Shown one piece after another: positions 2,152 through 36,147 of a stretch of DNA of 53,123 bases (position 1 is its first letter; each line of letters begins with the position of its first letter). Under the pieces are notes generated by a model. That model was not told the origin of the DNA. It searched no databases and was given only the letters and a program-made list of their open reading frames with translations. Both the position numbers and the translations under genes were made by a program. The DNA lies in the IMG/VR virus record IMGVR_UViG_3300032241_000435, positions 1 to 53,123 of that record; one strand, 5' to 3'. The stretch is from a virus. Taxonomy: Duplodnaviria; Caudoviricetes.

Positions 2152-2216
2152 CCTCCATGTCGATTGATTAGAAACTCATTGGCACTGCAATGCCTATGGG
2201 TTTCGACATTATATCA
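2152..2216 (-). promoter_or_regulatory. HNH promoter/leader: extended -10 plus nested inverted repeats
   Basis: TGATATAAT at 2216-2208; hairpin 2171-2204; ATGTCGA/TCGACAT at 2157-2163 and 2203-2209. Confidence 0.6.
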
Positions 2217-2225
2217 AAGGGAAAA

Positions 2226-2807
2226 ATGTTAAGTTTAATGTTTTCTTTTTTTAGTAATTTAATTTATTATTTTGCAATATCTGCAATTTTTTTAGGTATT
2301 GTTTTATACATATTAAGCAAAATAACTAATTTATTACCAATTTTCAAAGGTTATTCTTTGTTAATGCAAGTTTTTGGTATTTTTTTAACTTTAGGAGGTT
2401 TGGCTTATGTATCAAATATTAATGGCTATGAAAGACGGGTTGCAGAAGATAAAGCAGAAATTGAGCGACTTAATGGCGAAGCTCGAGAAAAAGAAGTCGA
2501 GCTCGGACAAAAGCTCGCAAGAGCCACCAGCCAACTAAAACAGGCTAAAAATGACATCAAAATTAAACAGGCTAGTATTGATGCTCGCATTGACTCTGGC
2601 GAGTTGCGCCTCCCCTCCACCTGTGGTGTACAAGCCAGTACAAGTGCCTCCAATGGAAATCAAGCCGATGGAGCCGAATCTGACAGACAGACTGTTAAAA
2701 ATATTGTCGCCATCGCCTCAGACGGAGACAAAGCAATCGTCAAGCTCAACGCCTGTATCAGCCAATATAACGAAGTGATGCAAACTGTTAACGAGGGGGT
2801 TAAATGA
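2226..2807 (+). CDS. Rz-like inner-membrane spanin
   Basis: N-terminal TMs, coiled coil, LRLP...C...GDKAIVKLNACISQY Rz-type tail; contains embedded lipoprotein; AAGGGA before ATG 2226. Confidence 0.82.
   Translation: MLSLMFSFFSNLIYYFAISAIFLGIVLYILSKITNLLPIFKGYSLLMQVFGIFLTLGGLAYVSNINGYERRVAEDKAEIERLNGEAREKEVELGQKLARATSQLKQAKNDIKIKQASIDARIDSGELRLPSTCGVQASTSASNGNQADGAESDRQTVKNIVAIASDGDKAIVKLNACISQYNEVMQTVNEGVK
2551..2778 (+). CDS. Rz1-like outer-membrane spanin lipoprotein embedded in Rz
   Basis: +1 frame; signal peptide with lipobox LASC; Pro-rich mature part (lambda-type embedded arrangement). Confidence 0.82.
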   Translation: MTSKLNRLVLMLALTLASCASPPPVVYKPVQVPPMEIKPMEPNLTDRLLKILSPSPQTETKQSSSSTPVSANITK

Positions 2808-11330: not shown

Positions 11331-14300
11331 ATGCCAATACTTGAAGGTTTTAAACCTGTTGGTGAGTTATCAGGTACAACTCCAACGATTGTTCCAAATG
11401 ACAGCAATGCGCTTATGTCTGGTTTGTCGTCAGGCACAAGTAATCTTGAAGGATTGCTGTACGATGCTTTAGGTGCAGGTGCTGATGCCGCTAAACTTAA
11501 AGAACTTAAAGAGTGGGCCAACAAACAAGCTAAGCAAAAAGAATATGAATCTTTTGTAGCTAGTAGACCTGAACTTAGTAATATTGAAGATCAGTCTTTA
11601 GGTTCTTTACCTTCTTATGCTGCTTATCAACTTGGACAACAATTACCCCAAGTAGGCGGAGCTATGCTCTTAGGTGCAGCTATTCCTGAAGCTGTTGTTC
11701 CTGCTGCTGTATCTAGACTAGGTGCTGTTGCTCCTGATTTTCTCAGTGGCGGAGCTTTAAAAGCTGGTGCTGATTTTGCTACTAGACGTGCTGCTTTAGA
11801 AACGGGAACGGCTCTTGGTAAAAATGCCATGGGTTTGGGAGCGTTCAACGAAGTCCAATCTATTGGTTCTTTATACAATAGCGCCAAAGAAAATCCTGAT
11901 GAGGAAAATGCAGGACTTAAATCCTTAGCATTATCTCCAGCTCATGCCGCACTTGAAACTATTCCAGAAGTTCTTTTGGGTAAAGTCATTGGCGGTGAAC
12001 ATGGATTTACTGGAAACTTTATTCAGCGAGGTTTAAAAGCAGGTGCGTCTCAAGCTACTACGGGAGCTTTATCTGAATTAGGTCAAGGTGAACTAGAGAT
12101 GGCTGTTGGTAAGCCATTAACAGATGAAGAAAAATTTAGCCAAAGATTAAATTCTGGCGTTGCTGGTGGGCTTGTAGAAGGTATTTTGGGCGGCGCTGGC
12201 GGTATGTTGCGTAGTGGTAAAGCTGTACCTTTGATGAAAGGTACAAACGAGCAACTAACTACATCTGAATTAGACCAAGGCAATGGTCAAGGTGGCGGTA
12301 GACAGCCTGATACTGGAGACTCAGTACAACAAGCTTTAAACGATAATCTTGATCTTGGGTCTACTCCAACGGCTAGAGTTCAGTTACCAACGCTTAGCGC
12401 AACTCAGCAAGGGACTACAGATGTAGCTCAACAAGCGGCTGCAGCAGAACAACAGCAACAACAAGCTCAAGCAATTCAACAGCAACAACAAGCGGCTGCA
12501 CAAGCTCAAGCTGACCTAAAAGCTCGTCAAGATCAAGCACTCCAAACTTTTGGTGTGGCGAATAGTGTTGATGACACCAGAGGTAACTTGGTTGGTAAAC
12601 CCATCTTATCTAAGAGTACTTTAAGTGTTGTAGCTAATGCGTTGGAAAAAGAACACAGCGCTATGCCTGAAGATCAAAGAACAATTGCTAGCGCAATCAT
12701 TGCCGCTAATAATGCTTTGGCTACACCTGAAAAAACAAACCCATTGGTAAGCTTTAGCTTTAATGTGGCTGATCCCGCTAAAACAGCTGCGTCTGTACAG
12801 AATGCTTTCAAAGCGATTGCTAATGTAGCTACCAAATACCAAATCCATGATGCGACATCTGCTGAGGAAGCTGCTGCCCGTTTGGATGAACAATCTAAAT
12901 CTGCCAAAGCTGGGGAGTTAGATAAGATCAATGCTATCCATCAAGCCTTGACAGGCAAGGATACTTCTGGTTTCATTGCTAGTCAACAATCTAAAGGAGA
13001 GAAAAATGGAAACAAACAACCCCAACGTCAAGTGGAAGCAACTCCCAGGGTGGGAACAGTACCAGTCCAAGGAGGATCAGCTCAAGCAGCAAATGGAGGA
13101 GGGAATGTGGGGGGCGGAAACGTTCAACCCATCGGAGCAGGAAGTGTCCCTCAAGAACAGGCTGGACAGCAAACTGGACGAGCACCAGCAGAAGGAATAC
13201 GGAATAGCCCCAGTGGAGATGTGCTCGGATTGCACAATAACAATGCTGGGAATGGGACTGGGCAGGGGCAGATAAATGGACAAGCGACCCCAACATCTGG
13301 TGAGTCCACACAACCCAGCGTTCAAACCGTGGCTAAGCCAACTGTGGCAGAAGGCCAAGGAGCGAGAGTCTATGACCCAACAATCTCCTACTACGCAACA
13401 GACCTTAGCCACATCAAACCAGCCAGACGAGAAGAAATCAGAAATGATTTAATTCGAGCTATCCTTGCTCCAGATGTAGAACGAGCTGGTGTGATGACCC
13501 TTGCACAAAGGGTTGACATGGTAACCATGGCTTTGATCGATGGTGAGCCACAAGAAGACATTGCCAAACAACTTGGCGTGTCTAAAGCTGCAGTTCAAAA
13601 ACAATTGGAACGTCTAGGTATTATTGTTAAGCCAAGGCTAACACCTGCTCAACAAAGCGAAATCAATTCTATTGAACAACGTTTAGGCATTCCAGCAGGA
13701 ACACGCAATACGACTAAAGACCCATTTGCGGTGTCTAAAGCAATTACTACGCAACTTCCAGTTGAAGAAACTGCTGATTTAGTCCATCGTCTTGATGGCT
13801 TATATAAGTCTGCTTCCAAAGACTATGGTATTGAAACGCCTAAAGACGGTAAAGCGTTTGACGATATGTTGCTTGACGCAGGTGAAGCCTATCGTTCTGC
13901 TGAATTCCCTGACGGTATTGGTGCTGGAGAAATTGTTTACTTGTATAGCCACGACAAGAACGTTACCACTGAGCAATCTTTGGCTGACGAACTAGAGAAT
14001 GGTAGTGTATCAGGTGATCGTAGCAAGTTGCTTGCTGAAGAAATGCGTGGTCGTGGTGAAGGCAATGAAGGCCAGTCTATGGGAGTTATCTCTCAAGCTG
14101 GTGGTAGCCAAGGTGCAGTAGGGTCATTGAATAAAGAGTTCTTTAACCGCATCGAAAAGCTCACCAACGAGATGGAAGCATTGCCTCCAAAAGACCCACG
14201 CAGAACAGTGATCGAAGAAAAGATCAAAGAAGAGTGGGCTAAGTATGGTAAGAAACAAGCTGCTCTTGCCGAACAAGGTGAGTTAGAGGTCAACCAAACT

Positions 14301-17300
14301 GAAGAAGGTGAGGAAGAAAATGCCGTTCAAGAGCAAAGCGCAAATGAGGGAAATGTTCGCAAATCAACCCGAGGTGGCAAAAAAGTGGGCGAAGCTAACG
14401 CCCAATCCGAAAAACCTGCCCGAAAAAGTGAAGCCAAAACCAGCGTCAAAAAAGAAACCGTAACTAAGTACCCTGTAACTATCGAAGGCAAACCAGCCAC
14501 GGTTTCAATTATTCGTATGGTGGATGACCCAACAAAAGTTGATGCGGTCAGAATCCATGTGAACGGTGAAAAACTACCCAGCAGCTTAGGCAAACAAGGT
14601 GTAGTATCTGATGAGCAAATGCTCAAGAACTTAACGGACATAAACGTTATTGATGAAGCTGAGCCGAAAGAGGTAAAGTCTGACAATCAGTTGGCAGGCG
14701 AAGCATGGGATAAAGTTGCTGCTGAGTATCCTGAAGCTCCAAAATGGGCTGACTTAACCAAAGAACAACAGAAAACGTTTACGGATTTCGGCCCTAAAAA
14801 TTGGACTGCCCAAGATGTTCAAGGTGAGTTAGTTAAACTTGCAAAAGAAAAACAAACCCAACAGCAAGTTGAAAAACAAGAAACCGAAACCAAAGCCGTT
14901 GAAGTTGCTGAAGAAGTTTTACAGCCACATTTAGATAAATTAACCGAAGGCCAAACTACTCGTTTAGAAAACTTCTATAAAGCTAAACGTGGTTCATCTG
15001 AATTTATTGCTAAAGTTCGTGATGATGTTGTCACACTAGCAAACAAAGGTGCTGCGGCAATCAATGCTGCCATTAGAGATATTATTAGCTCGCTTGCCAA
15101 AGGTGTTTTGGCAGTATCTGTGGTGTTTAATCCTCAGTTCATGAGTGCTCCTAATTTTGTATTGCACCCAACAAAAACAATTACCACTACAACCGTAAGG
15201 CAAATCAAAGCTTCTATTCCTCGTGGAGCAGAATCTTTATCTGAGAGTGGTAAAACTGCTTTTGCAACATTATTTCCAGCATTACAAGATGACCTAAAAG
15301 CAAATAATAAATTTTTTGTTTTGGCTGATAAACCGACTTCAACAGTTTTTGTGTTTAATCCAAATGGAACTTTATTTGCCAAATCAAAAGTGCTTCTTGG
15401 TAAGGCTTATGGAGATTTTTATGTTGGCTCAACTGATTTTGTTAAAAACCGCATAACTCCTGCTGGTCTGTTTAAAATTAATGCTGAAAAAGGCAGTGAA
15501 GTTTACGATGGTAAAACTATCTATACGATTGGTAATGTAAAAGAAGGTTGGACTGCTGCTATTTTCCATACCGTTTACACCAAAGAAGCTGATGGCCCTG
15601 CTCGTGTAAATGCTTTAACCAAAGAAGGTGCTGGAGATTCAAGATACTCTCATGGTTGTATTAATGGTAACCCTGAGTTTATGAATAAACTTGCCAATAG
15701 TGGCATGATGAACGAAGCTCATATGTTTGTGGTTCCTGATAACGCTAAGTTATTGGATTCTTTTATTGCAAATAAAGTTTCAAATGAAGATTTAACAAGA
15801 GAAACTATTGAGCCAAAAACTGTTACTGAAACCAAGACAACTACTGTTCCTAATGCAACTTCTGTTGCTACCAATCAAATTGTTGGTAAAGAAGAAAACG
15901 TATTCAAACCAACTAAAAATTTAAAATTTGGTGAAAATACTACCAAGGGTGTAAAGAATCCTTATTCAGTTGCAGAACTCACTGATGAGATTAAAACATT
16001 TATTCGTGCAGATATTCTTGGACGCAAACTTAAAATTGTTGAGAATGTTCAACAATTACTTTTATCTCCAGATCGAGAAGAACAAATCGTTGGCGCTGCT
16101 ATGGGTGTCAATGGCGCTTATGGTGTAGCCACAAACGGCACAGCTTACTTGATTGCTAACCGTATCGAAAAAGGTACAGGTCGTGCCAAATTTATGCACG
16201 AAGTTGGAGCCCATTTGGGTTTAGAAAAACTTCTTCCAACGGCTATCTACAACAAACTTACAGAACAAATCGCAAGTTGGGCTAAGTCTGACAATGGTTC
16301 TGTTGAATCCACGTTAGCAGTTAAAGCTGCTGAACGTGTTATGAATGCCAATACACCTAAAGAAGATCAGCGTTCTGAACTGCTGGCTTACTTTATAGAA
16401 GAAGCAATGCAAGCAGGTATTGATCCAACTGCGGCAGGTAAAGAATCAGCAGCTTTATCGTCTTGGTTCCGTACATTGTGGGCGGCATTTAAAAATGCTG
16501 TTCGTAAACTTGGATTTAAAGAATCTAATCTAACTGCTCAAGATGTAGTTAACCTTGCTTTTGGTGCAGCTCGTTTAGAAATTACTGGCACATGGCATGG
16601 TACTGCTGCTAGCTTCCGTAAGTTTAACCACAAGTTTATGGGTTCTGGTGAAGGAGCTCAAGCTTATGGTTGGGGTACGTATCTTGCACAACGTGTGGGT
16701 ATTGCTCATGGTTATTGGAAAGCTGATGTGCAAAGGAAGACTTCGCCTGTTGAAGTTTTGTACAACGGTAAAGATATTGACCATATTGCTACAGACTTAT
16801 TTTTCAAAAGCAATCTTACTAAGGATGAAAAGGCTTTACTGAATATAGTTACAGAGCTTAGTTTGCAAGCAGGTGTTGGCAATACTGACTCAATTCGCAC
16901 CGTTCACTTAAATCTTGCTAAAAAGTTAAATAAAACAGCAGAAGAAAAATATGCTTCGGAATGGCTTGATAAACATTATTCTGATTTTTCTACAAAAAGT
17001 ACAGCCCCTCTTGGTAGTTTATTTCGTGTAGATGTTGGCGTTGGTCAAAATGATTTATTGGATTGGGATGAGCCCTTATCTAAACAACCTAATGTTTTAA
17101 AAGCAATTAAAAACAATCTTTCTTCTGATGTCATTAACACGCTAGAAGAAGAGTACAACGATGATTTAGATAATCTTACTGGAGAAGACTTTTATCGTGG
17201 ACTGCAAGCTTTAGAAAAAAGAGATGGATTAATAAGCGATCAGTTTAAAGATGTTGAAGATTACAACAAACGTTTAGGCAATAAAGGCGCAAAACAAATT

Positions 17301-20300
17301 GTGTCTACTTATTTAGATGAAATAGCTAAAGTCCCTGGGATTAAATTTTTAGATGCTATGAGTCGGGGCGCAGGCCCTGAAAAGAAACTTGTTTTCCATG
17401 GAGTTAAATATACATCAGATGAATTAAGACATCTAGTAAAAGAAGCTCGAGAGGGAAAAGGAACTCTTACTCTTGACCAAGTAACAAACTTGCGCCATGT
17501 ACTGCATGTTGGTATTAATGCAGCATTAGAAGAATACAAAAAGAAAATCCAAAGGACAATTGATTCTTCTGTTCAAATATACAAAGAATCAAGTGAGAGA
17601 TTTAAAGTACCGTATAACGAAGCTGAGGCATTGGCGAGGGCTAAAGCAATAGCTGAAAAAACTTACGAAGCTCAACAACTGAAATGGCTAGAGGATAACC
17701 TTAAAAATATTGATGTTATCTCCAAAGAAAAAGTTCGCACAAAAAATTTAGTTGTCTTTAATGACAAAAATATCCAGCGTGTTGGATCAGAAGTTGCTGC
17801 TGATAGACAGCGCATGAAGTTTGGTATTGACCAAGCTACTGTTGATAAAAATATCAACAAGCTACCTCCTAGGATTCAAAAGCCTACACGAGTCATCACA
17901 GACTCATTGTTCAAGCAAGTCATCTCTAAGATGGGTGCAGCCAAAAACTTGATCTTGAAGTCTGCCATCACAGAAGATGTGGTGAAGTACGCACAGAAAT
18001 ATATGCGTTCCGCAGACAAATACTTGGCAGCTCAGTATGCTCGTCAAGCCATGGTGAACAAGTTCAACAACAAAGTTGATAAGATTCTTACAGCTTATGA
18101 AAAACTCGACAAAGCGATCCAAGGTGAAGGCGCAGGTAGCGTCAATGAATTTATCGCTGATTCAGTGCTTAGTGGTAAGTGGGGTTATTACCCTGGTTCT
18201 AAATTTGTAGGCACTAAGTTGTTTGAAGTTGATCCAGATATGGAGAAACGTTTCAAAGCGTTTGAGAAGTATGAAGGCGCACAAGAGTTAATTAAGTCAG
18301 TATTTGAGCATGGTCACGATGTATTGATGTCTAAACAATCTGCTGCAACTAAAGCGGTTGATGCTGAGTTTGCTGAGCGTGAGCGTCAAGCATTCTTTGA
18401 CCCAGATATTTTGGATCAGTTACGTGCTGAGAAAAAGGCGGCTATTGCCAAGATATCTTTGGGTGATCCCACTGTACCCTACGCACCCTTGAGCCGCTAT
18501 GGTGATTACGTTGTGATCGCTAAGTCTGCTGAGTACCAAGCCTACGAAGATATGCTGAGTGGCGAACGTGGTATGGCTACTGGTAACAACGATATCGTTG
18601 GGGATGCCAACAGAGCTCGCATTTGGATGGATGAAAATCAATCCAACTCAACTCACTACGTTGTTCAGTTTGCTGAAACTTTAGGCGAGGCCAATAAGAT
18701 TGCTCAAGACCTTGGCGCTACTGGCCTATACGATAACGTTCAGTCGGGTGAAAAAGAAACTCAAGCTAGCTATGCTGGTGGTAGCGATATCCATTTGGCT
18801 GTTACTAGACTACGTAACTTATTCAAACGTTCCACTGAAAACAAGAGTACTCCTGAAGCCAAAGCTTTGGACAAAATGATCGGCGACTTGTACTTGTTGG
18901 CTACTGCTGAGAACAGTGCTCGTAAGTCTGAGATTGAACGTAAAAAGATATCAGGCTTTGATAAGAACATGATGCGTAACCTAGCCACAAGTGGTAAGGC
19001 AAATGCTCATTTCTTGGCTAGCATGGAACACAATGACGCAATCAATGAAGCCATTGATGAGATGCGCCAACAAGCTAAAGCCAATCGTGCTGAAGCCATG
19101 CCTTACTTCAATGAGCTGATGGAGCGCAATTCGGCTTCCATGAACTATAAGAGCCCAAGCATCATTGCCAAGTCTTTGAATCAGGCTAACCATATCTATT
19201 CTTTGACTTTTAGCCCTGCGTTCTATCTGCAACAGATGGTGCAAACTGCGGCTATTTCTTTGCCATACCTTGCTGGTCGTTTGGGTTATACCAATGCTGC
19301 CAAGCATATCGGTCGTGCATACCAAGATGTGAGCAAAATTAAGAATGCATTAGATTTCAAGAACGTCAATGACCATCTTGATTTCAGCAAAGCTCCTGCT
19401 GATGTGCGTGCAATGCTTGATCGTTTGGTAGGCATGGGCAAGATTGATATCGGCATGGATTCTGAGTTCAAAGCCAAGGGTTACGATCAGACTTTGTTTG
19501 ATAAAGTCATGTACAAAATGCAAGGTATTACCAACCGCATCGAAACTGTCAACCGTTCTGTAGCTGCCATAGCCGCTTATCGTGGTTATCTTGAACGCTA
19601 CGGTATGGATAAAGTGGAAGGTGCAACCCAGTACGCTGCAGACGTTGTGTCCGATACTCATGGTTCATACGATGGATTCAATACTCCTCGTGTACTCCAA
19701 AGCACGTTTGGTAAGGTAGCGCTCCAGTTCAGACGTTTCCAAATCATCCAATTGTCTATGATGGCAAAGATGATCCATACTGCTTTCATCGAGAACTCAG
19801 CTTCCAAAGAAGAAAAACTTGTAGCCAAGAAAACACTTGCGTTTATCTGTGCTCAGATGGCGGTAGTGGCTGGCGGCTTGGGTGTGCCATTTGTTTCTCA
19901 GTTGGCATTCTTGATCCTGAAGATGTTCGGTTCACCTGATGAGCCTGATGATGTTGAGTACAAGCTACGCAAATTGATTGGCGATCCAGTTGCGGCTGAG
20001 TTGTTGTTGCGTGGTGTATCGGGTGCTGTCGGCTGGGAATCTTTCGGTAAGAAGATATCCATGGAAAACGTTGCGTCTCCATTCGGTGGGTATGTAGTTC
20101 CTGATCTTACTAATCGTAAAGGTGTAGAAAAGACTGCTCTAGCGATTCTTGGCCCTTCGCTCAGCTTGACTGAGAAGTTGGCTGATGCTTTCCAATATAC
20201 AGCACAAGGCAATTACTACAAAGGACTTGAGGCTGCTTTGCCAAATGGTTTATCAAACTCTCTTAAAGGTGCTCGTTACCTTACAGAAGGTATGACCATG

Positions 20301-20690
20301 AGGAACGGTGACCTTGTAATGAAGCCTGACGATATTGGTATGCTTGGTGCTGCATCTCAAATGTTTGGCCTGCCAACAAATGCGATCACTCATCAACAGT
20401 TTGCTCAGAAAGTTAAAGCTGAATACGATCAGCAATATCAGGAAAGGTTGACTGAAATTAAAGGTGAATATGTGAAAGCCTATCGTGCCAATGATTCTAA
20501 AGGTATGTCTAATGCTAGAGAGGAATTTAGGCAGATGGAAGAGTCACGTATGGCTAACGGATACAAACGCCAACCATTGTCTGAGTTGTTAAAAGCACCA
20601 ATGGCGGCAATGAAGCGTGAACGTTCTGTAGTCAATGGGGTAGAATCTACAAAGCAAAATAAACAATTCTTAGCCACGATGGGTGCATGA
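11331..20690 (+). CDS. giant polyvalent ejection protein (HTH, L,D-transpeptidase, metallopeptidase, ART-like, PLxRFG, LPD-type C-terminus)
   Basis: QEDIAKQLGVSKAAV; H...SHGCIN; HEVGAH; WHGT...GSGEGAQAYGWGTY...NLVVF; PLSRYG. Confidence 0.85.
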   Translation: MPILEGFKPVGELSGTTPTIVPNDSNALMSGLSSGTSNLEGLLYDALGAGADAAKLKELKEWANKQAKQKEYESFVASRPELSNIEDQSLGSLPSYAAYQLGQQLPQVGGAMLLGAAIPEAVVPAAVSRLGAVAPDFLSGGALKAGADFATRRAALETGTALGKNAMGLGAFNEVQSIGSLYNSAKENPDEENAGLKSLALSPAHAALETIPEVLLGKVIGGEHGFTGNFIQRGLKAGASQATTGALSELGQGELEMAVGKPLTDEEKFSQRLNSGVAGGLVEGILGGAGGMLRSGKAVPLMKGTNEQLTTSELDQGNGQGGGRQPDTGDSVQQALNDNLDLGSTPTARVQLPTLSATQQGTTDVAQQAAAAEQQQQQAQAIQQQQQAAAQAQADLKARQDQALQTFGVANSVDDTRGNLVGKPILSKSTLSVVANALEKEHSAMPEDQRTIASAIIAANNALATPEKTNPLVSFSFNVADPAKTAASVQNAFKAIANVATKYQIHDATSAEEAAARLDEQSKSAKAGELDKINAIHQALTGKDTSGFIASQQSKGEKNGNKQPQRQVEATPRVGTVPVQGGSAQAANGGGNVGGGNVQPIGAGSVPQEQAGQQTGRAPAEGIRNSPSGDVLGLHNNNAGNGTGQGQINGQATPTSGESTQPSVQTVAKPTVAEGQGARVYDPTISYYATDLSHIKPARREEIRNDLIRAILAPDVERAGVMTLAQRVDMVTMALIDGEPQEDIAKQLGVSKAAVQKQLERLGIIVKPRLTPAQQSEINSIEQRLGIPAGTRNTTKDPFAVSKAITTQLPVEETADLVHRLDGLYKSASKDYGIETPKDGKAFDDMLLDAGEAYRSAEFPDGIGAGEIVYLYSHDKNVTTEQSLADELENGSVSGDRSKLLAEEMRGRGEGNEGQSMGVISQAGGSQGAVGSLNKEFFNRIEKLTNEMEALPPKDPRRTVIEEKIKEEWAKYGKKQAALAEQGELEVNQTEEGEEENAVQEQSANEGNVRKSTRGGKKVGEANAQSEKPARKSEAKTSVKKETVTKYPVTIEGKPATVSIIRMVDDPTKVDAVRIHVNGEKLPSSLGKQGVVSDEQMLKNLTDINVIDEAEPKEVKSDNQLAGEAWDKVAAEYPEAPKWADLTKEQQKTFTDFGPKNWTAQDVQGELVKLAKEKQTQQQVEKQETETKAVEVAEEVLQPHLDKLTEGQTTRLENFYKAKRGSSEFIAKVRDDVVTLANKGAAAINAAIRDIISSLAKGVLAVSVVFNPQFMSAPNFVLHPTKTITTTTVRQIKASIPRGAESLSESGKTAFATLFPALQDDLKANNKFFVLADKPTSTVFVFNPNGTLFAKSKVLLGKAYGDFYVGSTDFVKNRITPAGLFKINAEKGSEVYDGKTIYTIGNVKEGWTAAIFHTVYTKEADGPARVNALTKEGAGDSRYSHGCINGNPEFMNKLANSGMMNEAHMFVVPDNAKLLDSFIANKVSNEDLTRETIEPKTVTETKTTTVPNATSVATNQIVGKEENVFKPTKNLKFGENTTKGVKNPYSVAELTDEIKTFIRADILGRKLKIVENVQQLLLSPDREEQIVGAAMGVNGAYGVATNGTAYLIANRIEKGTGRAKFMHEVGAHLGLEKLLPTAIYNKLTEQIASWAKSDNGSVESTLAVKAAERVMNANTPKEDQRSELLAYFIEEAMQAGIDPTAAGKESAALSSWFRTLWAAFKNAVRKLGFKESNLTAQDVVNLAFGAARLEITGTWHGTAASFRKFNHKFMGSGEGAQAYGWGTYLAQRVGIAHGYWKADVQRKTSPVEVLYNGKDIDHIATDLFFKSNLTKDEKALLNIVTELSLQAGVGNTDSIRTVHLNLAKKLNKTAEEKYASEWLDKHYSDFSTKSTAPLGSLFRVDVGVGQNDLLDWDEPLSKQPNVLKAIKNNLSSDVINTLEEEYNDDLDNLTGEDFYRGLQALEKRDGLISDQFKDVEDYNKRLGNKGAKQIVSTYLDEIAKVPGIKFLDAMSRGAGPEKKLVFHGVKYTSDELRHLVKEAREGKGTLTLDQVTNLRHVLHVGINAALEEYKKKIQRTIDSSVQIYKESSERFKVPYNEAEALARAKAIAEKTYEAQQLKWLEDNLKNIDVISKEKVRTKNLVVFNDKNIQRVGSEVAADRQRMKFGIDQATVDKNINKLPPRIQKPTRVITDSLFKQVISKMGAAKNLILKSAITEDVVKYAQKYMRSADKYLAAQYARQAMVNKFNNKVDKILTAYEKLDKAIQGEGAGSVNEFIADSVLSGKWGYYPGSKFVGTKLFEVDPDMEKRFKAFEKYEGAQELIKSVFEHGHDVLMSKQSAATKAVDAEFAERERQAFFDPDILDQLRAEKKAAIAKISLGDPTVPYAPLSRYGDYVVIAKSAEYQAYEDMLSGERGMATGNNDIVGDANRARIWMDENQSNSTHYVVQFAETLGEANKIAQDLGATGLYDNVQSGEKETQASYAGGSDIHLAVTRLRNLFKRSTENKSTPEAKALDKMIGDLYLLATAENSARKSEIERKKISGFDKNMMRNLATSGKANAHFLASMEHNDAINEAIDEMRQQAKANRAEAMPYFNELMERNSASMNYKSPSIIAKSLNQANHIYSLTFSPAFYLQQMVQTAAISLPYLAGRLGYTNAAKHIGRAYQDVSKIKNALDFKNVNDHLDFSKAPADVRAMLDRLVGMGKIDIGMDSEFKAKGYDQTLFDKVMYKMQGITNRIETVNRSVAAIAAYRGYLERYGMDKVEGATQYAADVVSDTHGSYDGFNTPRVLQSTFGKVALQFRRFQIIQLSMMAKMIHTAFIENSASKEEKLVAKKTLAFICAQMAVVAGGLGVPFVSQLAFLILKMFGSPDEPDDVEYKLRKLIGDPVAAELLLRGVSGAVGWESFGKKISMENVASPFGGYVVPDLTNRKGVEKTALAILGPSLSLTEKLADAFQYTAQGNYYKGLEAALPNGLSNSLKGARYLTEGMTMRNGDLVMKPDDIGMLGAASQMFGLPTNAITHQQFAQKVKAEYDQQYQERLTEIKGEYVKAYRANDSKGMSNAREEFRQMEESRMANGYKRQPLSELLKAPMAAMKRERSVVNGVESTKQNKQFLATMGA
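13006..13275 (+). CDS. nested +1-frame ORF (89 aa) within giant gene
   Basis: AAGGAGAGAAAA-ATG; METNNPNVKWKQLPGWEQYQ... Confidence 0.5.
   Translation: METNNPNVKWKQLPGWEQYQSKEDQLKQQMEEGMWGAETFNPSEQEVSLKNRLDSKLDEHQQKEYGIAPVEMCSDCTITMLGMGLGRGR
13276..13452 (+). CDS. nested +1-frame ORF (58 aa) abutting the previous one
   Basis: TAA-ATG junction; MDKRPQHLVSPHNPAFKPWLSQLWQKAKERE... Confidence 0.4.
   Translation: MDKRPQHLVSPHNPAFKPWLSQLWQKAKERESMTQQSPTTQQTLATSNQPDEKKSEMI
14320..14463 (+). CDS. nested +1-frame basic microprotein, MPFKSKAQ-type (47 aa)
   Basis: AAGGTGAGGAAGAAA-ATG; MPFKSKAQMREMFANQPEVAKKWAKLTPNPKNLPEKVKPKPASKKKP. Confidence 0.72.
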   Translation: MPFKSKAQMREMFANQPEVAKKWAKLTPNPKNLPEKVKPKPASKKKP

Positions 20691-20935
20691 TGGAAACAGA
20701 AATCGAAACAGCACGTGAACTAGCCACTCATGCCGCAGATATCAAACATCTGCAAGATGATATGGATAAATTAATGTCCGATATGGAAGACATTAAGAAG
20801 TCCCTTCAGGCGATTAGCACTACTTTATCTGAGGCCAAGGGTGGGTGGAAGATGCTAATGTTGATTGGTGGAGCTAGCGGAACTGTTGGCGCAGTAATTA
20901 TGCAAATCATTCATAGCATTCCTTCTTGGAAATAA
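20687..20935 (+). CDS. small coiled-coil plus TM protein (holin-like)
   Basis: Coiled coil then AKGGWK and hydrophobic helix; ATGA overlap. Confidence 0.7.
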   Translation: MMETEIETARELATHAADIKHLQDDMDKLMSDMEDIKKSLQAISTTLSEAKGGWKMLMLIGGASGTVGAVIMQIIHSIPSWK

Positions 20936-34518: not shown

Positions 34519-34779
34519 TCATTTAGTTAGTGATACGACTGCTACTGCCCACGCTTGGGCTTCCTCCAATGTCTTAAACTGGTTTCCATTAAGATCAAAG
34601 GTATCTGTGAAGATAGTTACTTTCCATTTATACGGCTCTGCGTAATCCTCCCTGCTTACACGAGCAACTGTTGAATTAAAAACTTGGACTGGGTTTTCAA
34701 CTTGAAGAAGGTACACTTCTTTCGATCTGTACCCTCCGTCATACTGAAGTTGGCTATTGGTAACTTGAACCCATTTCAT
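34519..34779 (-). CDS. hypothetical protein
   Basis: 86-aa ORF, ATGA-coupled. Confidence 0.7.
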   Translation of the reverse strand: MKWVQVTNSQLQYDGGYRSKEVYLLQVENPVQVFNSTVARVSREDYAEPYKWKVTIFTDTFDLNGNQFKTLEEAQAWAVAVVSLTK

Positions 34780-35924
34780 GCTAGCTCGAAGTGCACATTC
34801 TCGCCATGTGTTGCTACCACATCGCTACTGATACACCACACGATAGGATAATCTTGAGCCTCACCGAAGTCGGTATAGCCGTCAGTTAAAACTACCATCA
34901 CGTCAGGGCTTATGCCATTTTGTGATAGGTAATCAAAGCCAGCTGGCATATGAGTTCCACCACCTGAGAAGAATGTAAGACCAAACTCCTCGCCATGTTC
35001 AAACTCATCGTGACGTTGTACGTCTGTGTCTACATACAATACATGGACTTTATCGGGAGCACACATTTCGATGATACGCTTGAGGTGTCCGTTGTAATGA
35101 TCCAGTTCTTGCTTGCTGATGGAACCAGATACATCGACTTGCACAACAAGTTCTCCCATCTTGGGTAGCTTATCCACGCTAGGCAGATACACATCCTGAT
35201 GCCTGCGGTTAGGACGTTTCCACGTTTGATTCTGTCTAACTTGAGCTACCATGTGTTTCTCAAGTATGTCATACCATGGAGTCTTGACGTCAAGGATATC
35301 GGCTACCATATCCTGTAAGCTACCTGATAACTTACCACGCATCTTGGCAGTCTGCGCAGCCTCAGCGATCTCTACTTTCATCTTACCCTCGATCTCACGT
35401 TGCTCGTCTTTGGTCAGTGGTCTATTGCCTGTACCATCTTCACCACCATCACCCTCGATGATATCCTCGCCTAGCCCATCACCATCCATTGGATTATTGT
35501 TAGGCTTACCGCTACCGCCACCATTGTCGGGTAGATTGTTATAGATGTTATCGACTGTATCGTCCTTGCTACCCTTCATGTCTACACACTTGGGGATACG
35601 TTGTCCAATACCTGCATCGTCAAGAGTATCATTGATCCATGCGTCACCTGCATAGTTCCACTTACGTTGATTCCTACCGCCCAGTCTATTAGCGTGTTGA
35701 CCTACCACGTGCATGACCTCATGACACAAACCCCACACGAGTTGAGGTACTGGTAAGCTCTCAGTGAACTCAGGGTTATAGAAGATCGTACCCTTGCCAT
35801 CGACCCCTAGCGTTGGTACTTCCTTGGTACTTACTAGCTTGCGTCTTAACAGTATCGATGCAAAGAACGGATGATCTAACACGATCTGCGTCACTGCTTT
35901 CTCTATCTTAGTTGGTTGCGCCAT
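34776..35924 (-). CDS. DUF2201-type metallopeptidase plus VWA-domain protein
   Basis: HEVMH zincin motif; MIDAS DVSGS, GGGT, TDG; AAGGAG before ATG 35924. Confidence 0.88.
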   Translation of the reverse strand: MAQPTKIEKAVTQIVLDHPFFASILLRRKLVSTKEVPTLGVDGKGTIFYNPEFTESLPVPQLVWGLCHEVMHVVGQHANRLGGRNQRKWNYAGDAWINDTLDDAGIGQRIPKCVDMKGSKDDTVDNIYNNLPDNGGGSGKPNNNPMDGDGLGEDIIEGDGGEDGTGNRPLTKDEQREIEGKMKVEIAEAAQTAKMRGKLSGSLQDMVADILDVKTPWYDILEKHMVAQVRQNQTWKRPNRRHQDVYLPSVDKLPKMGELVVQVDVSGSISKQELDHYNGHLKRIIEMCAPDKVHVLYVDTDVQRHDEFEHGEEFGLTFFSGGGTHMPAGFDYLSQNGISPDVMVVLTDGYTDFGEAQDYPIVWCISSDVVATHGENVHFELA

Positions 35925-36147
35925 TTGTTTTCTCCTTTTTGATAATAGTAAAACCATCTTCAGTTACGATTGCCTCGGCCTCACCTTCAGCGATCGCTTG
36001 CATCGCTCGGCATATGGCTTTTAGCTCGTAGTCTTTCTTTTCTATCTCTGCTTTGTAGTTGCGTTTATCTAGTATGCTACCGACAATCATCAGTACCACG
36101 GCTACCATCAGCAAAAACTCCACCACACTTATTTCAATTGTTCCCAT
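35908..36147 (-). CDS. small membrane protein
   Basis: N-terminal hydrophobic helix. Confidence 0.65.
   Translation of the reverse strand: MGTIEISVVEFLLMVAVVLMIVGSILDKRNYKAEIEKKDYELKAICRAMQAIAEGEAEAIVTEDGFTIIKKEKTNGATN

Follow-up and report, generated by a model that had tools for sequence, protein, structure and literature searches.

The virus record IMGVR_UViG_3300032241_000435 (Duplodnaviria; Caudoviricetes) was analyzed over positions 1 to 53,123, and this stretch of 53,123 nucleotides (nt) is referred to here as the window. A giant gene in the window contains, in the low-complexity linker of its protein, two tandem open reading frames (ORFs) in the +1 frame relative to the main frame, named ORF1 and ORF2. 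Comparison with related loci indicated that this linker is very probably a dual-coding region that accommodates a real gene, ORF1, and a probable second gene, ORF2. A first-pass annotation, made from the sequence without database searches, had proposed a hidden internal mini-operon in the linker; this proposal gained strong support for ORF1 and moderate support for ORF2, where the +1 periodicity is confined to its first ~36 codons, while a cysteine motif and a third ORF included in it did not hold up. The features concerned are listed below.

11331..20690 (+): host gene, encoding a 3119-amino-acid (aa) giant virion/polyvalent protein (ORF list, Pfam, and PHROGs)
12994-12999 (+): AAGGAG, resembling a Shine-Dalgarno (SD) sequence, followed by the 6-nt spacer AGAAAA and the ATG of ORF1
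13006..13275 (+): ORF1, 89 aa, in the +1 frame of the giant gene; ATG at 13006, TAA at 13273-13275
13276..13452 (+): ORF2, 58 aa, in the +1 frame of the giant gene; its ATG abuts the ORF1 stop (TAA-ATG), and its TAA is at 13450-13452
16597..16842 (+): a third +1 ORF, 81 aa, inside the giant gene (ORF list)

Conservation of ORF1 and its start signals

Searches seeded with the main frame yielded only two relatives, L001 and L002, both of which carry ORF1. When viral contigs were searched with the ORF1 peptide and then with alignments of its matches, the collection grew from seven to 25 and then to 55 loci, beyond which one metagenome locus and one 1.26-kb contig of a metagenome-assembled genome (MAG) were recovered. 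The analyzed set comprised 57 loci, the window included, and contained 48 distinct ORF1 sequences; L060 was excluded, being cut at the contig start, and L062 lacks the 3' end.

The arrangement described in the first-pass annotation, with AAGGAG and an ATG opening an ORF of 89 aa and TAA-ATG opening another of 58 aa, is present in the window exactly in that form. All 57 loci have ORF1 in the +1 frame, enclosed by a main frame that is open over a long distance (351-3120 codons, as limited by contig ends). Its start codon is ATG in every locus and its stop codon is TAA in 55 of the 56 complete copies and TAG in the other, with lengths of 78-91 aa among the relatives. The SD-like motif was retained in 56 of the 57 loci: AAGGAG is placed exactly 6 nt from the ATG in 46, while AAGGA(A), AGGAG, and GGAG occur in seven, two, and one, respectively. 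The remaining locus, L063, has an alternative ATG three codons upstream. The SD, the ATG, and the open frame, on whose conservation the first-pass annotation had staked its proposal, were thus kept among the relatives.

The ATG of ORF1 is invariant even though the main-frame residues across the start vary (N or D, then G or E), as do the codons of the spacer, and internal initiation is therefore favored over a +1 frameshift. Additionally, in all 48 distinct sequences the folding of a 60-nt segment centered on this ATG is weaker by 6.6 kcal/mol than that of the local background. Initiation signals of this type are common in the phage, where an SD-like motif was found at 27 of 53 long-ORF starts. 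The pattern AGGAG-N5-8-ATG occurs 25 times (both strands, overlapping forms counted) versus 8.3±3.8 times in shuffled sequences, and it is frequently placed at the start of a long ORF. A search for an internal promoter identified two promoter-like sites versus 1.3 expected, neither of which stands out.

Selection and dual coding over ORF1

The distribution of substitutions pointed to the +1 frame as the constrained one. L002 is 91.3% identical to the window without gaps from 12894 to 14400, and in 13006-13452 the two differ by 45 substitutions, of which 24, 14, and 7 are at main-frame codon positions 1, 2, and 3 and only one is synonymous in the main frame. In the flanks, position 3 had the usual surplus of substitutions (5/6/13 upstream and 20/8/34 downstream). 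At nested positions 1/2/3 of ORF1, the 48 distinct sequences had diversities of 0.363/0.273/0.434 (position 3 above position 2, p=7e-7), which is the shifted codon periodicity that had been suggested as a check on the proposal. The least variable site of ORF1 is the third position of the main frame, equivalent to nested position 2, and the flanks have their highest variability at this main-frame position (0.62-0.64). When 18 sequences were aligned with the main frame as the guide, the diversity at main-frame position 3 divided by the mean of positions 1 and 2 was 0.53-0.85 over ORF1 and ~1.0 over the first part of ORF2, and it was 1.4-2.8 everywhere outside this cassette. No further dips in main-frame synonymous diversity were seen between -200 and +420 codons from the ORF1 start.

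The ratio of nonsynonymous to synonymous substitution rates (dN/dS, Nei-Gojobori) was 0.06-0.30 in the nested frame in 12 of 12 pairs (0.26 when pooled), and the identical columns read in the main frame gave 1.0-14 (2.1 when pooled). The identity in the +1 frame exceeded that in the main frame in 36 of 36 pairs. In each of 17 distant loci, ORF1 is 40-68% identical to that of the window, and the 559 upstream residues of the giant protein are 22-37% identical (best high-scoring segment pair, HSP). The ORF1 DNA read in the main frame is 31-49% identical in these loci, with no match in one, and the best HSPs of the downstream giant protein are 26-61% identical over partial coverage. Lake-metagenome contigs from four DNA runs yielded only variants of the L001/L002 type, in which the 13 listed variant places in 13006-13217 were distributed over nested positions 3/1/2 as 8/4/1. 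In these contigs, a 1-nt deletion at 13180 is also followed, two to three bases on, by a compensating 1-nt insertion (13180-13183), so that both reading frames are restored within one or two codons.

ORF1 thus has the properties of an embedded gene, namely a conserved ORF with conserved start and stop signals and purifying selection combined with suppressed synonymous change in the host frame, and it is almost certainly a real coding gene. The main frame also appeared to be maintained. With the ORF1 protein fixed and synonymous codons resampled, ~6.6 main-frame stops were expected and the probability of an open frame was at most 0.0025. The main frame nevertheless stays open in 48 of 48 sequences, and the region is therefore truly dual-coding.

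Judged from these comparisons, it is the nested protein that determines the sequence, the main frame being just kept open as a hydrophobic-poor linker. This linker comprises residues ~559-690 of the giant protein, and across the nested ORFs its hydrophobic residues amount to 9% (21.5% gene-wide). Its glycine, glutamine, and alanine content is 37% versus 25% gene-wide, in agreement with the first-pass description of a Gly/Gln/Ala-rich main frame. Such a 'filler' composition would be expected if selection acts mainly on the nested protein and requires of the main frame only that it remain open and flexible.

From the conservation, the frame-specific selection, and the start and stop signals, we infer that the cassette is translated. 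Ribosomes would most likely initiate internally on the late mRNA of the giant gene, at AAGGAG-N6-ATG in a weakly folded, A-rich stretch, and produce an ORF1 protein of ~80-90 aa that ends at the conserved TAA.

The second nested ORF

In 41 of 56 loci, the ORF1 stop is followed within eight codons by a +1 ORF of at least 40 aa. Its start is the very next codon in 18 loci, with TAA-ATG in 14 of them, including the window. In another 20 loci, the start is placed four codons on as ATG or GTG, and in 17 of these GGAG is found 6 nt upstream. In two further loci, L025 and L027, a member of the same ORF2 family is found 47 codons downstream, and GGAG again precedes its ATG by 6 nt. The ORF1 end therefore displays the signature of tandem coupled genes, either a stop-start abutment or an SD, from which the coupling itself is inferred. 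ORF2 may be produced by termination-reinitiation at TAA-ATG in the window, and in the relatives with a start four codons on by use of their own GGAG.

Several ORF2 families were distinguished: family A in 25 loci, family B in the window, L002, L042, L044, and L046, family C in four loci, and others. In a profile comparison (hhalign), family B matched family A with 97% probability. A scan with family A returned 21 matches, all of which are contigs already known.

The codon periodicity divided ORF2 into two parts. Over the first 36 codons (13276-13383), the diversity of families A, B, and C pooled followed the +1 frame (0.165/0.156/0.281, position 3 above position 2, p=3e-4), and main-frame position 3 diversity was 0.29-0.35 versus 0.55-0.63 in the flanks. 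The last ~23 codons followed the main frame (main-frame position 3 at 0.331, p=0.005), and this tail (13384-13452) overlaps the beginning of a conserved main-frame domain. The same split was also found in main-frame-guided alignments. The functional part of ORF2 would hence be approximately its first 36 residues, which include one predicted helix.

Other observations make the case for ORF2 weaker than that for ORF1. It is absent from at least five of the 56 loci, and eight more have only distant or doubtful candidates. Some of its starts are GTG, part of the match between families A and B is forced by the conserved main-frame tail, and family C had no match to family A by hhalign. Taken together, the data argue that ORF2 is probably a real second coding gene that varies among lineages.

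Alternative explanations

A +1 ribosomal frameshift from the main frame is a very improbable alternative. It would produce a truncated isoform of ~558 aa followed by the ORF1 residues, with the internal SD as the stimulator. For +1 shifting stimulated by internal SD sequences, prfB is a precedent, the window has an A-run (AAA-A) just before the ATG on which Lys-tRNA could slip by +1, and the +1 frame is open for at least nine codons upstream of the ATG in all loci. However, the slip-prone codon is not conserved, as the spacers of other loci include ACA-A and TCA-A, and no common slippery site was found. A frameshift also does not account for an ATG that persists in every locus regardless of the main-frame residues, for a distance of 6 nt between SD and ATG that is typical of initiation, or for the separate SD and start of ORF2.

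A chance origin is very improbable in view of the relatives. Under this explanation, the T-poor and hydrophobic-poor linker removes stops from the alternative frames, and an SD-like string of codons for K-G-E precedes the ATG by accident. On this sequence alone, chance had been rated as the highly likely origin of both ORFs, and it was dropped once the relatives had been compared. The data from the single genome, together with the manner in which the relatives were obtained, are points that count against a coding interpretation. The T content of the nested region is 13.8%, compared with 26.3% for the whole gene. When synonymous codons were resampled under a constant main-frame protein, the expectation was 2.9 +1 stops in 150 codons, and 2 were observed (P=0.41); the probability of no +1 stop given the main-frame protein was 0.13 for ORF1 and 0.36 for ORF2. 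The longest or second-longest open run of three other alternative frames also falls in this region. The open +1 frame in this genome is thus not beyond chance, and the depletion of +1 stops that had been proposed as a check is not seen here. Likewise, the open frame with ordinary composition that had drawn attention to the region is explained by linker composition alone. The evidence for real ORFs comes only from the relatives. Since most loci were retrieved with ORF1, its presence among them is partly by construction; this does not apply to the frame, to the signals, or to the way in which ORF1 evolves. The p-values overstate the independence of the sequences, as these are related and form only five single-linkage clusters at 60% identity.

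Chance nevertheless leaves unexplained a conserved ORF1 protein with its ATG, SD spacing, and TAA set within a far more divergent flanking protein, as well as the +1 codon periodicity and the low nested-frame dN/dS. It is refuted for ORF1, and it is still live for ORF2 in those lineages that have no adjacent ORF.

Two further explanations are extremely improbable. In the first, no +1 translation takes place, and diversifying selection on a hypervariable main-frame linker inflates the changes at positions 1 and 2, in line with the main-frame dN/dS above 1 and the 24/14/7 distribution between the window and L002. The nucleotide diversity of the segment is, however, lower than that of the flanks, main-frame synonymous sites are the most conserved, and the +1 protein is conserved down to 40% identity with invariant motifs and with its start and stop signals kept. 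In the second, the segment is a non-coding cis element such as an RNA structure, a recombination hinge, or a packaging signal, for which the mosaic breakpoints of two close relatives on either side of the cassette (12894 and 13293) could be cited. Such an element predicts neither a three-base periodicity in one frame, nor conserved in-frame ATG and TAA codons, nor a dN/dS of 0.26, and the start region is weakly folded. A role as a recombination hinge could exist as a by-product alongside coding.

Protein features and possible roles of the nested ORFs

The ORF1 family is characterized by the motifs LPGWEQ[YF]QSK (with the invariant core P-G-x-E), FNPSxQE (NPSxQE), R..SK, and EYG.AP. Its C-terminal tail is Pro-rich and contains a short hydrophobic stretch followed by three to five basic residues, such that an acidic body (median net charge -2.5) is joined to a basic tail (+3). 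The ordinary composition noted in the first-pass annotation, with tryptophan and a CxxC, was found as described, ORF1 containing three Trp and C73-x-x-C76 and ORF2 two Trp. As a feature of the family, though, the CxxC fails: the two closest relatives have CSNG or CLAG in its place, and none of the others contains it. No transmembrane segment was found in ORF1, where the maximal 19-residue Kyte-Doolittle mean reached 1.14 at most among the 48 sequences, with a median of 0.13. AlphaFold models were of low confidence, with only short helices for ORF1 (pLDDT 64.6, pTM 0.31) and one helix at residues 18-33 for ORF2 (pLDDT 61.0). The hydrophobic moment of ORF2 gave no sign of an amphipathic helix, being reached by 0.02-0.58 of shuffled sequences.

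Searching with both peptides, as the first-pass annotation had suggested, recovered relatives and no known family. Pfam returned sub-threshold matches only (E=0.015 and 0.055), NCBIfam one match far under its cut-off (E=0.055), and PHROGs and PADLOC no families. The best match among PDB sequences had E=0.82, the ESM Atlas gave nothing usable, and a fold search of BFVD with the low-confidence ORF1 model reached E=4.1 at best. In a metagenome set of 5.8 billion proteins, ORF1 matched 56 small proteins of 51-142 aa, none with a Pfam domain. These are either unnamed or called hypothetical, except for P0020, which is mislabelled 'ribosomal protein S16'. P0002, P0006, P0008, P0017, P0032, and P0037 are located on long contigs. 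In two others, P0050 (142 aa) and P0053 (132 aa), only half of ORF1 is fused to unrelated sequence, and they are likely chimeras of assembly or gene calling. A profile search of 1.84 billion representatives gave 13 matches, among which the long repetitive proteins P0061 (2288 aa) and P0062 (938 aa) were judged spurious.

Since the models are poor and no family was matched, any function has to be read from position. The nesting is invariable despite the shuffling of modules around the cassette. On this basis, a tentative reading is that these small, mostly disordered late proteins work together with the giant ejected protein or at the cell envelope, where they may help in assembly or packaging or serve as a protective partner. 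A more specific and rather unlikely possibility is that the cassette is a two-protein module tied to the giant ejected protein (a chaperone, packaging adaptor, or protective partner), and that the linker arose when two ancestral genes fused across a pre-existing pair of small genes in another frame. A fusion would fit the observations because the nested frame is the more constrained, the main frame is simply open, and exchange of the modules on either side leaves the cassette in place. If so, the disordered linkers of polyvalent proteins would be both by-products and harbors of older embedded genes. The two small-protein families are candidates for a part in assembling the virion, in ejection, or in taking over the host.

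Comparison with known embedded genes

The standard embedded +1-frame phage gene is Rz1 inside Rz, where the o-spanin gene is located wholly within the i-spanin gene (PMC6139136, PMC5295617). ORF1 and ORF2 resemble lambda Rz/Rz1 in that a larger phage gene of the same direction fully encloses, in its +1 frame, a small gene with its own start signals. They differ in that the host gene encodes a giant virion protein instead of an i-spanin and that two nested ORFs occur in tandem. ORF1 and ORF2 were considered as embedded o-spanins and rejected, as they have neither a hydrophobic N-terminus with a signal peptide nor a lipobox. An N-terminal cysteine is not conserved and is absent in the window, and where a cysteine occurs no lipobox precedes it. 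A holin or a lysis protein similar to phiX174 E was likewise rejected for ORF1 for want of a transmembrane segment.

Overprinting is well known from small phages, as in E inside D and B inside A of phiX174, and nested ORFs are also found in T7. The asymmetric dual coding observed here is similar, with suppressed synonymous sites in the host frame and both products poorly ordered in the overlap. In contrast to those phages, this double-stranded DNA (dsDNA) phage of ~53 kb is under no evident genome-size pressure, ORF1 has no transmembrane segment, and the nested frame instead of the host frame is the more constrained. Overprinted genes have also been reviewed as a general class (PMC8227390).

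The giant gene itself resembles those of polyvalent and DarB-like proteins in being giant and multidomain, with a DarB-like/PLxRFG-type C-terminus and a YkuD domain. The cassette, on the other hand, was not seen in cultured phages, as ORF1 had no match by tblastn among 50,697 GenBank phage records. A blastn search with 12400-14000 likewise gave no match among GenBank phages and plasmids, and the cultured DarB-like phages seem to be without the cassette. The text of the description of polyvalent proteins by Iyer et al. 2017 (PMC5512222) does not contain the word 'overlap', and its matching passages mention no nested ORFs. Full-text literature searches, with supplements outside their scope, found no published description of nested genes in polyvalent or DarB-like proteins. 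While embedded +1 genes are known in phages, ORF1 and ORF2 are, as far as these searches indicate, new small-protein families.

Standard gene callers forbid nesting on the same strand, which renders the ORF1 family invisible in phage annotation. Yet among the coding elements in this stretch of the giant gene, ORF1 is the most conserved throughout a widespread group of uncultured lake phages (at least 55 viral contigs). It provides a clean case in a ~53-kb dsDNA phage of an embedded frame that, unusually, dominates selection over the host frame. The apparent 'positive selection' on the linker (dN/dS above 1) and its 'filler' composition can be read as side effects of the hidden gene, which calls for caution in evolutionary scans and in the interpretation of domain linkers in polyvalent proteins.

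Host gene and genomic setting

The window is a phage genome in which terminase, portal, major head, tail fiber, endolysin, and spanin-like genes were found. The giant gene had been taken as that of a polyvalent protein in the first-pass annotation, and the domain searches agreed. Residues 2382-3102 match phrog_10089, 'DarB-like antirestriction' (E=6e-41, PHROGs), the C-terminal region is 24-26% identical to DarB-like/PLxRFG proteins of cultured phages, and a YkuD domain was found just over the Pfam cut-off (E=6.6e-5, 24 bits, cut-off 23.4). Below the Pfam threshold, Sigma70_r4_2 and ART-PolyVal (E=0.064) were also matched. The protein further contains a segment similar to a helix-turn-helix (HTH). 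By these matches, the protein belongs to the polyvalent/DarB-like class, being giant and multidomain with a DarB-like/PLxRFG-type region and an effector-type domain.

The N-termini of the giant proteins are highly divergent among relatives, as is the HTH-like domain downstream of the cassette. The downstream main-frame domain, with 20% mean column identity and no invariant columns, was unusable as a seed in searching for relatives that lack ORF1. Similarity to the two closest relatives changes on either side of the cassette: L001 is 96.6% identical in nucleotides up to 13293 and divergent beyond, and the similarity to L002 begins at 12894. Modules of the giant gene on the N- and C-terminal sides may thus be exchanged with the conserved cassette as the hinge.

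Three nested ORFs in the same +1 frame had been reported in the first-pass annotation. The third, probably the ORF at 16597..16842, exists in that frame and showed no sign of conservation, its sole relative being a near-identical contig that covers residues 1-43.

Another +1 ORF, of 75 aa at 2551..2778 (+), is located within an Rz-like i-spanin gene (2190..2807, PHROG E=1e-9). It encodes a signal peptide, a lipobox-like LASC, and a Pro-rich body, and it is apparently an embedded Rz1-type o-spanin and thus a second +1 nested gene in this genome. An embedded o-spanin implies a diderm host. The 1261-bp contig L065, which was assigned to an Actinomycetota MAG and carries the ORF1-ORF2 cassette in a fragment of a giant gene, is, given this spanin evidence, probably a mis-binned phage fragment rather than a clue to the host.

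Immediately downstream of the giant gene, an 82-aa ORF at 20687-20935 (+) shares 4 nt (ATGA) with the stop of that gene, and its match in PHROGs is phrog_1193, 'hemolysin' (E=2e-7). It may be coupled to the giant gene and may encode a small membrane protein or one resembling a holin. Additionally, two HNH endonuclease genes were identified on the minus strand, one at 1672-2145 (phrog_99, E=3e-55), opposite to the surrounding plus-strand genes, and the other at 34776-35957 (phrog_1314, E=1e-81).

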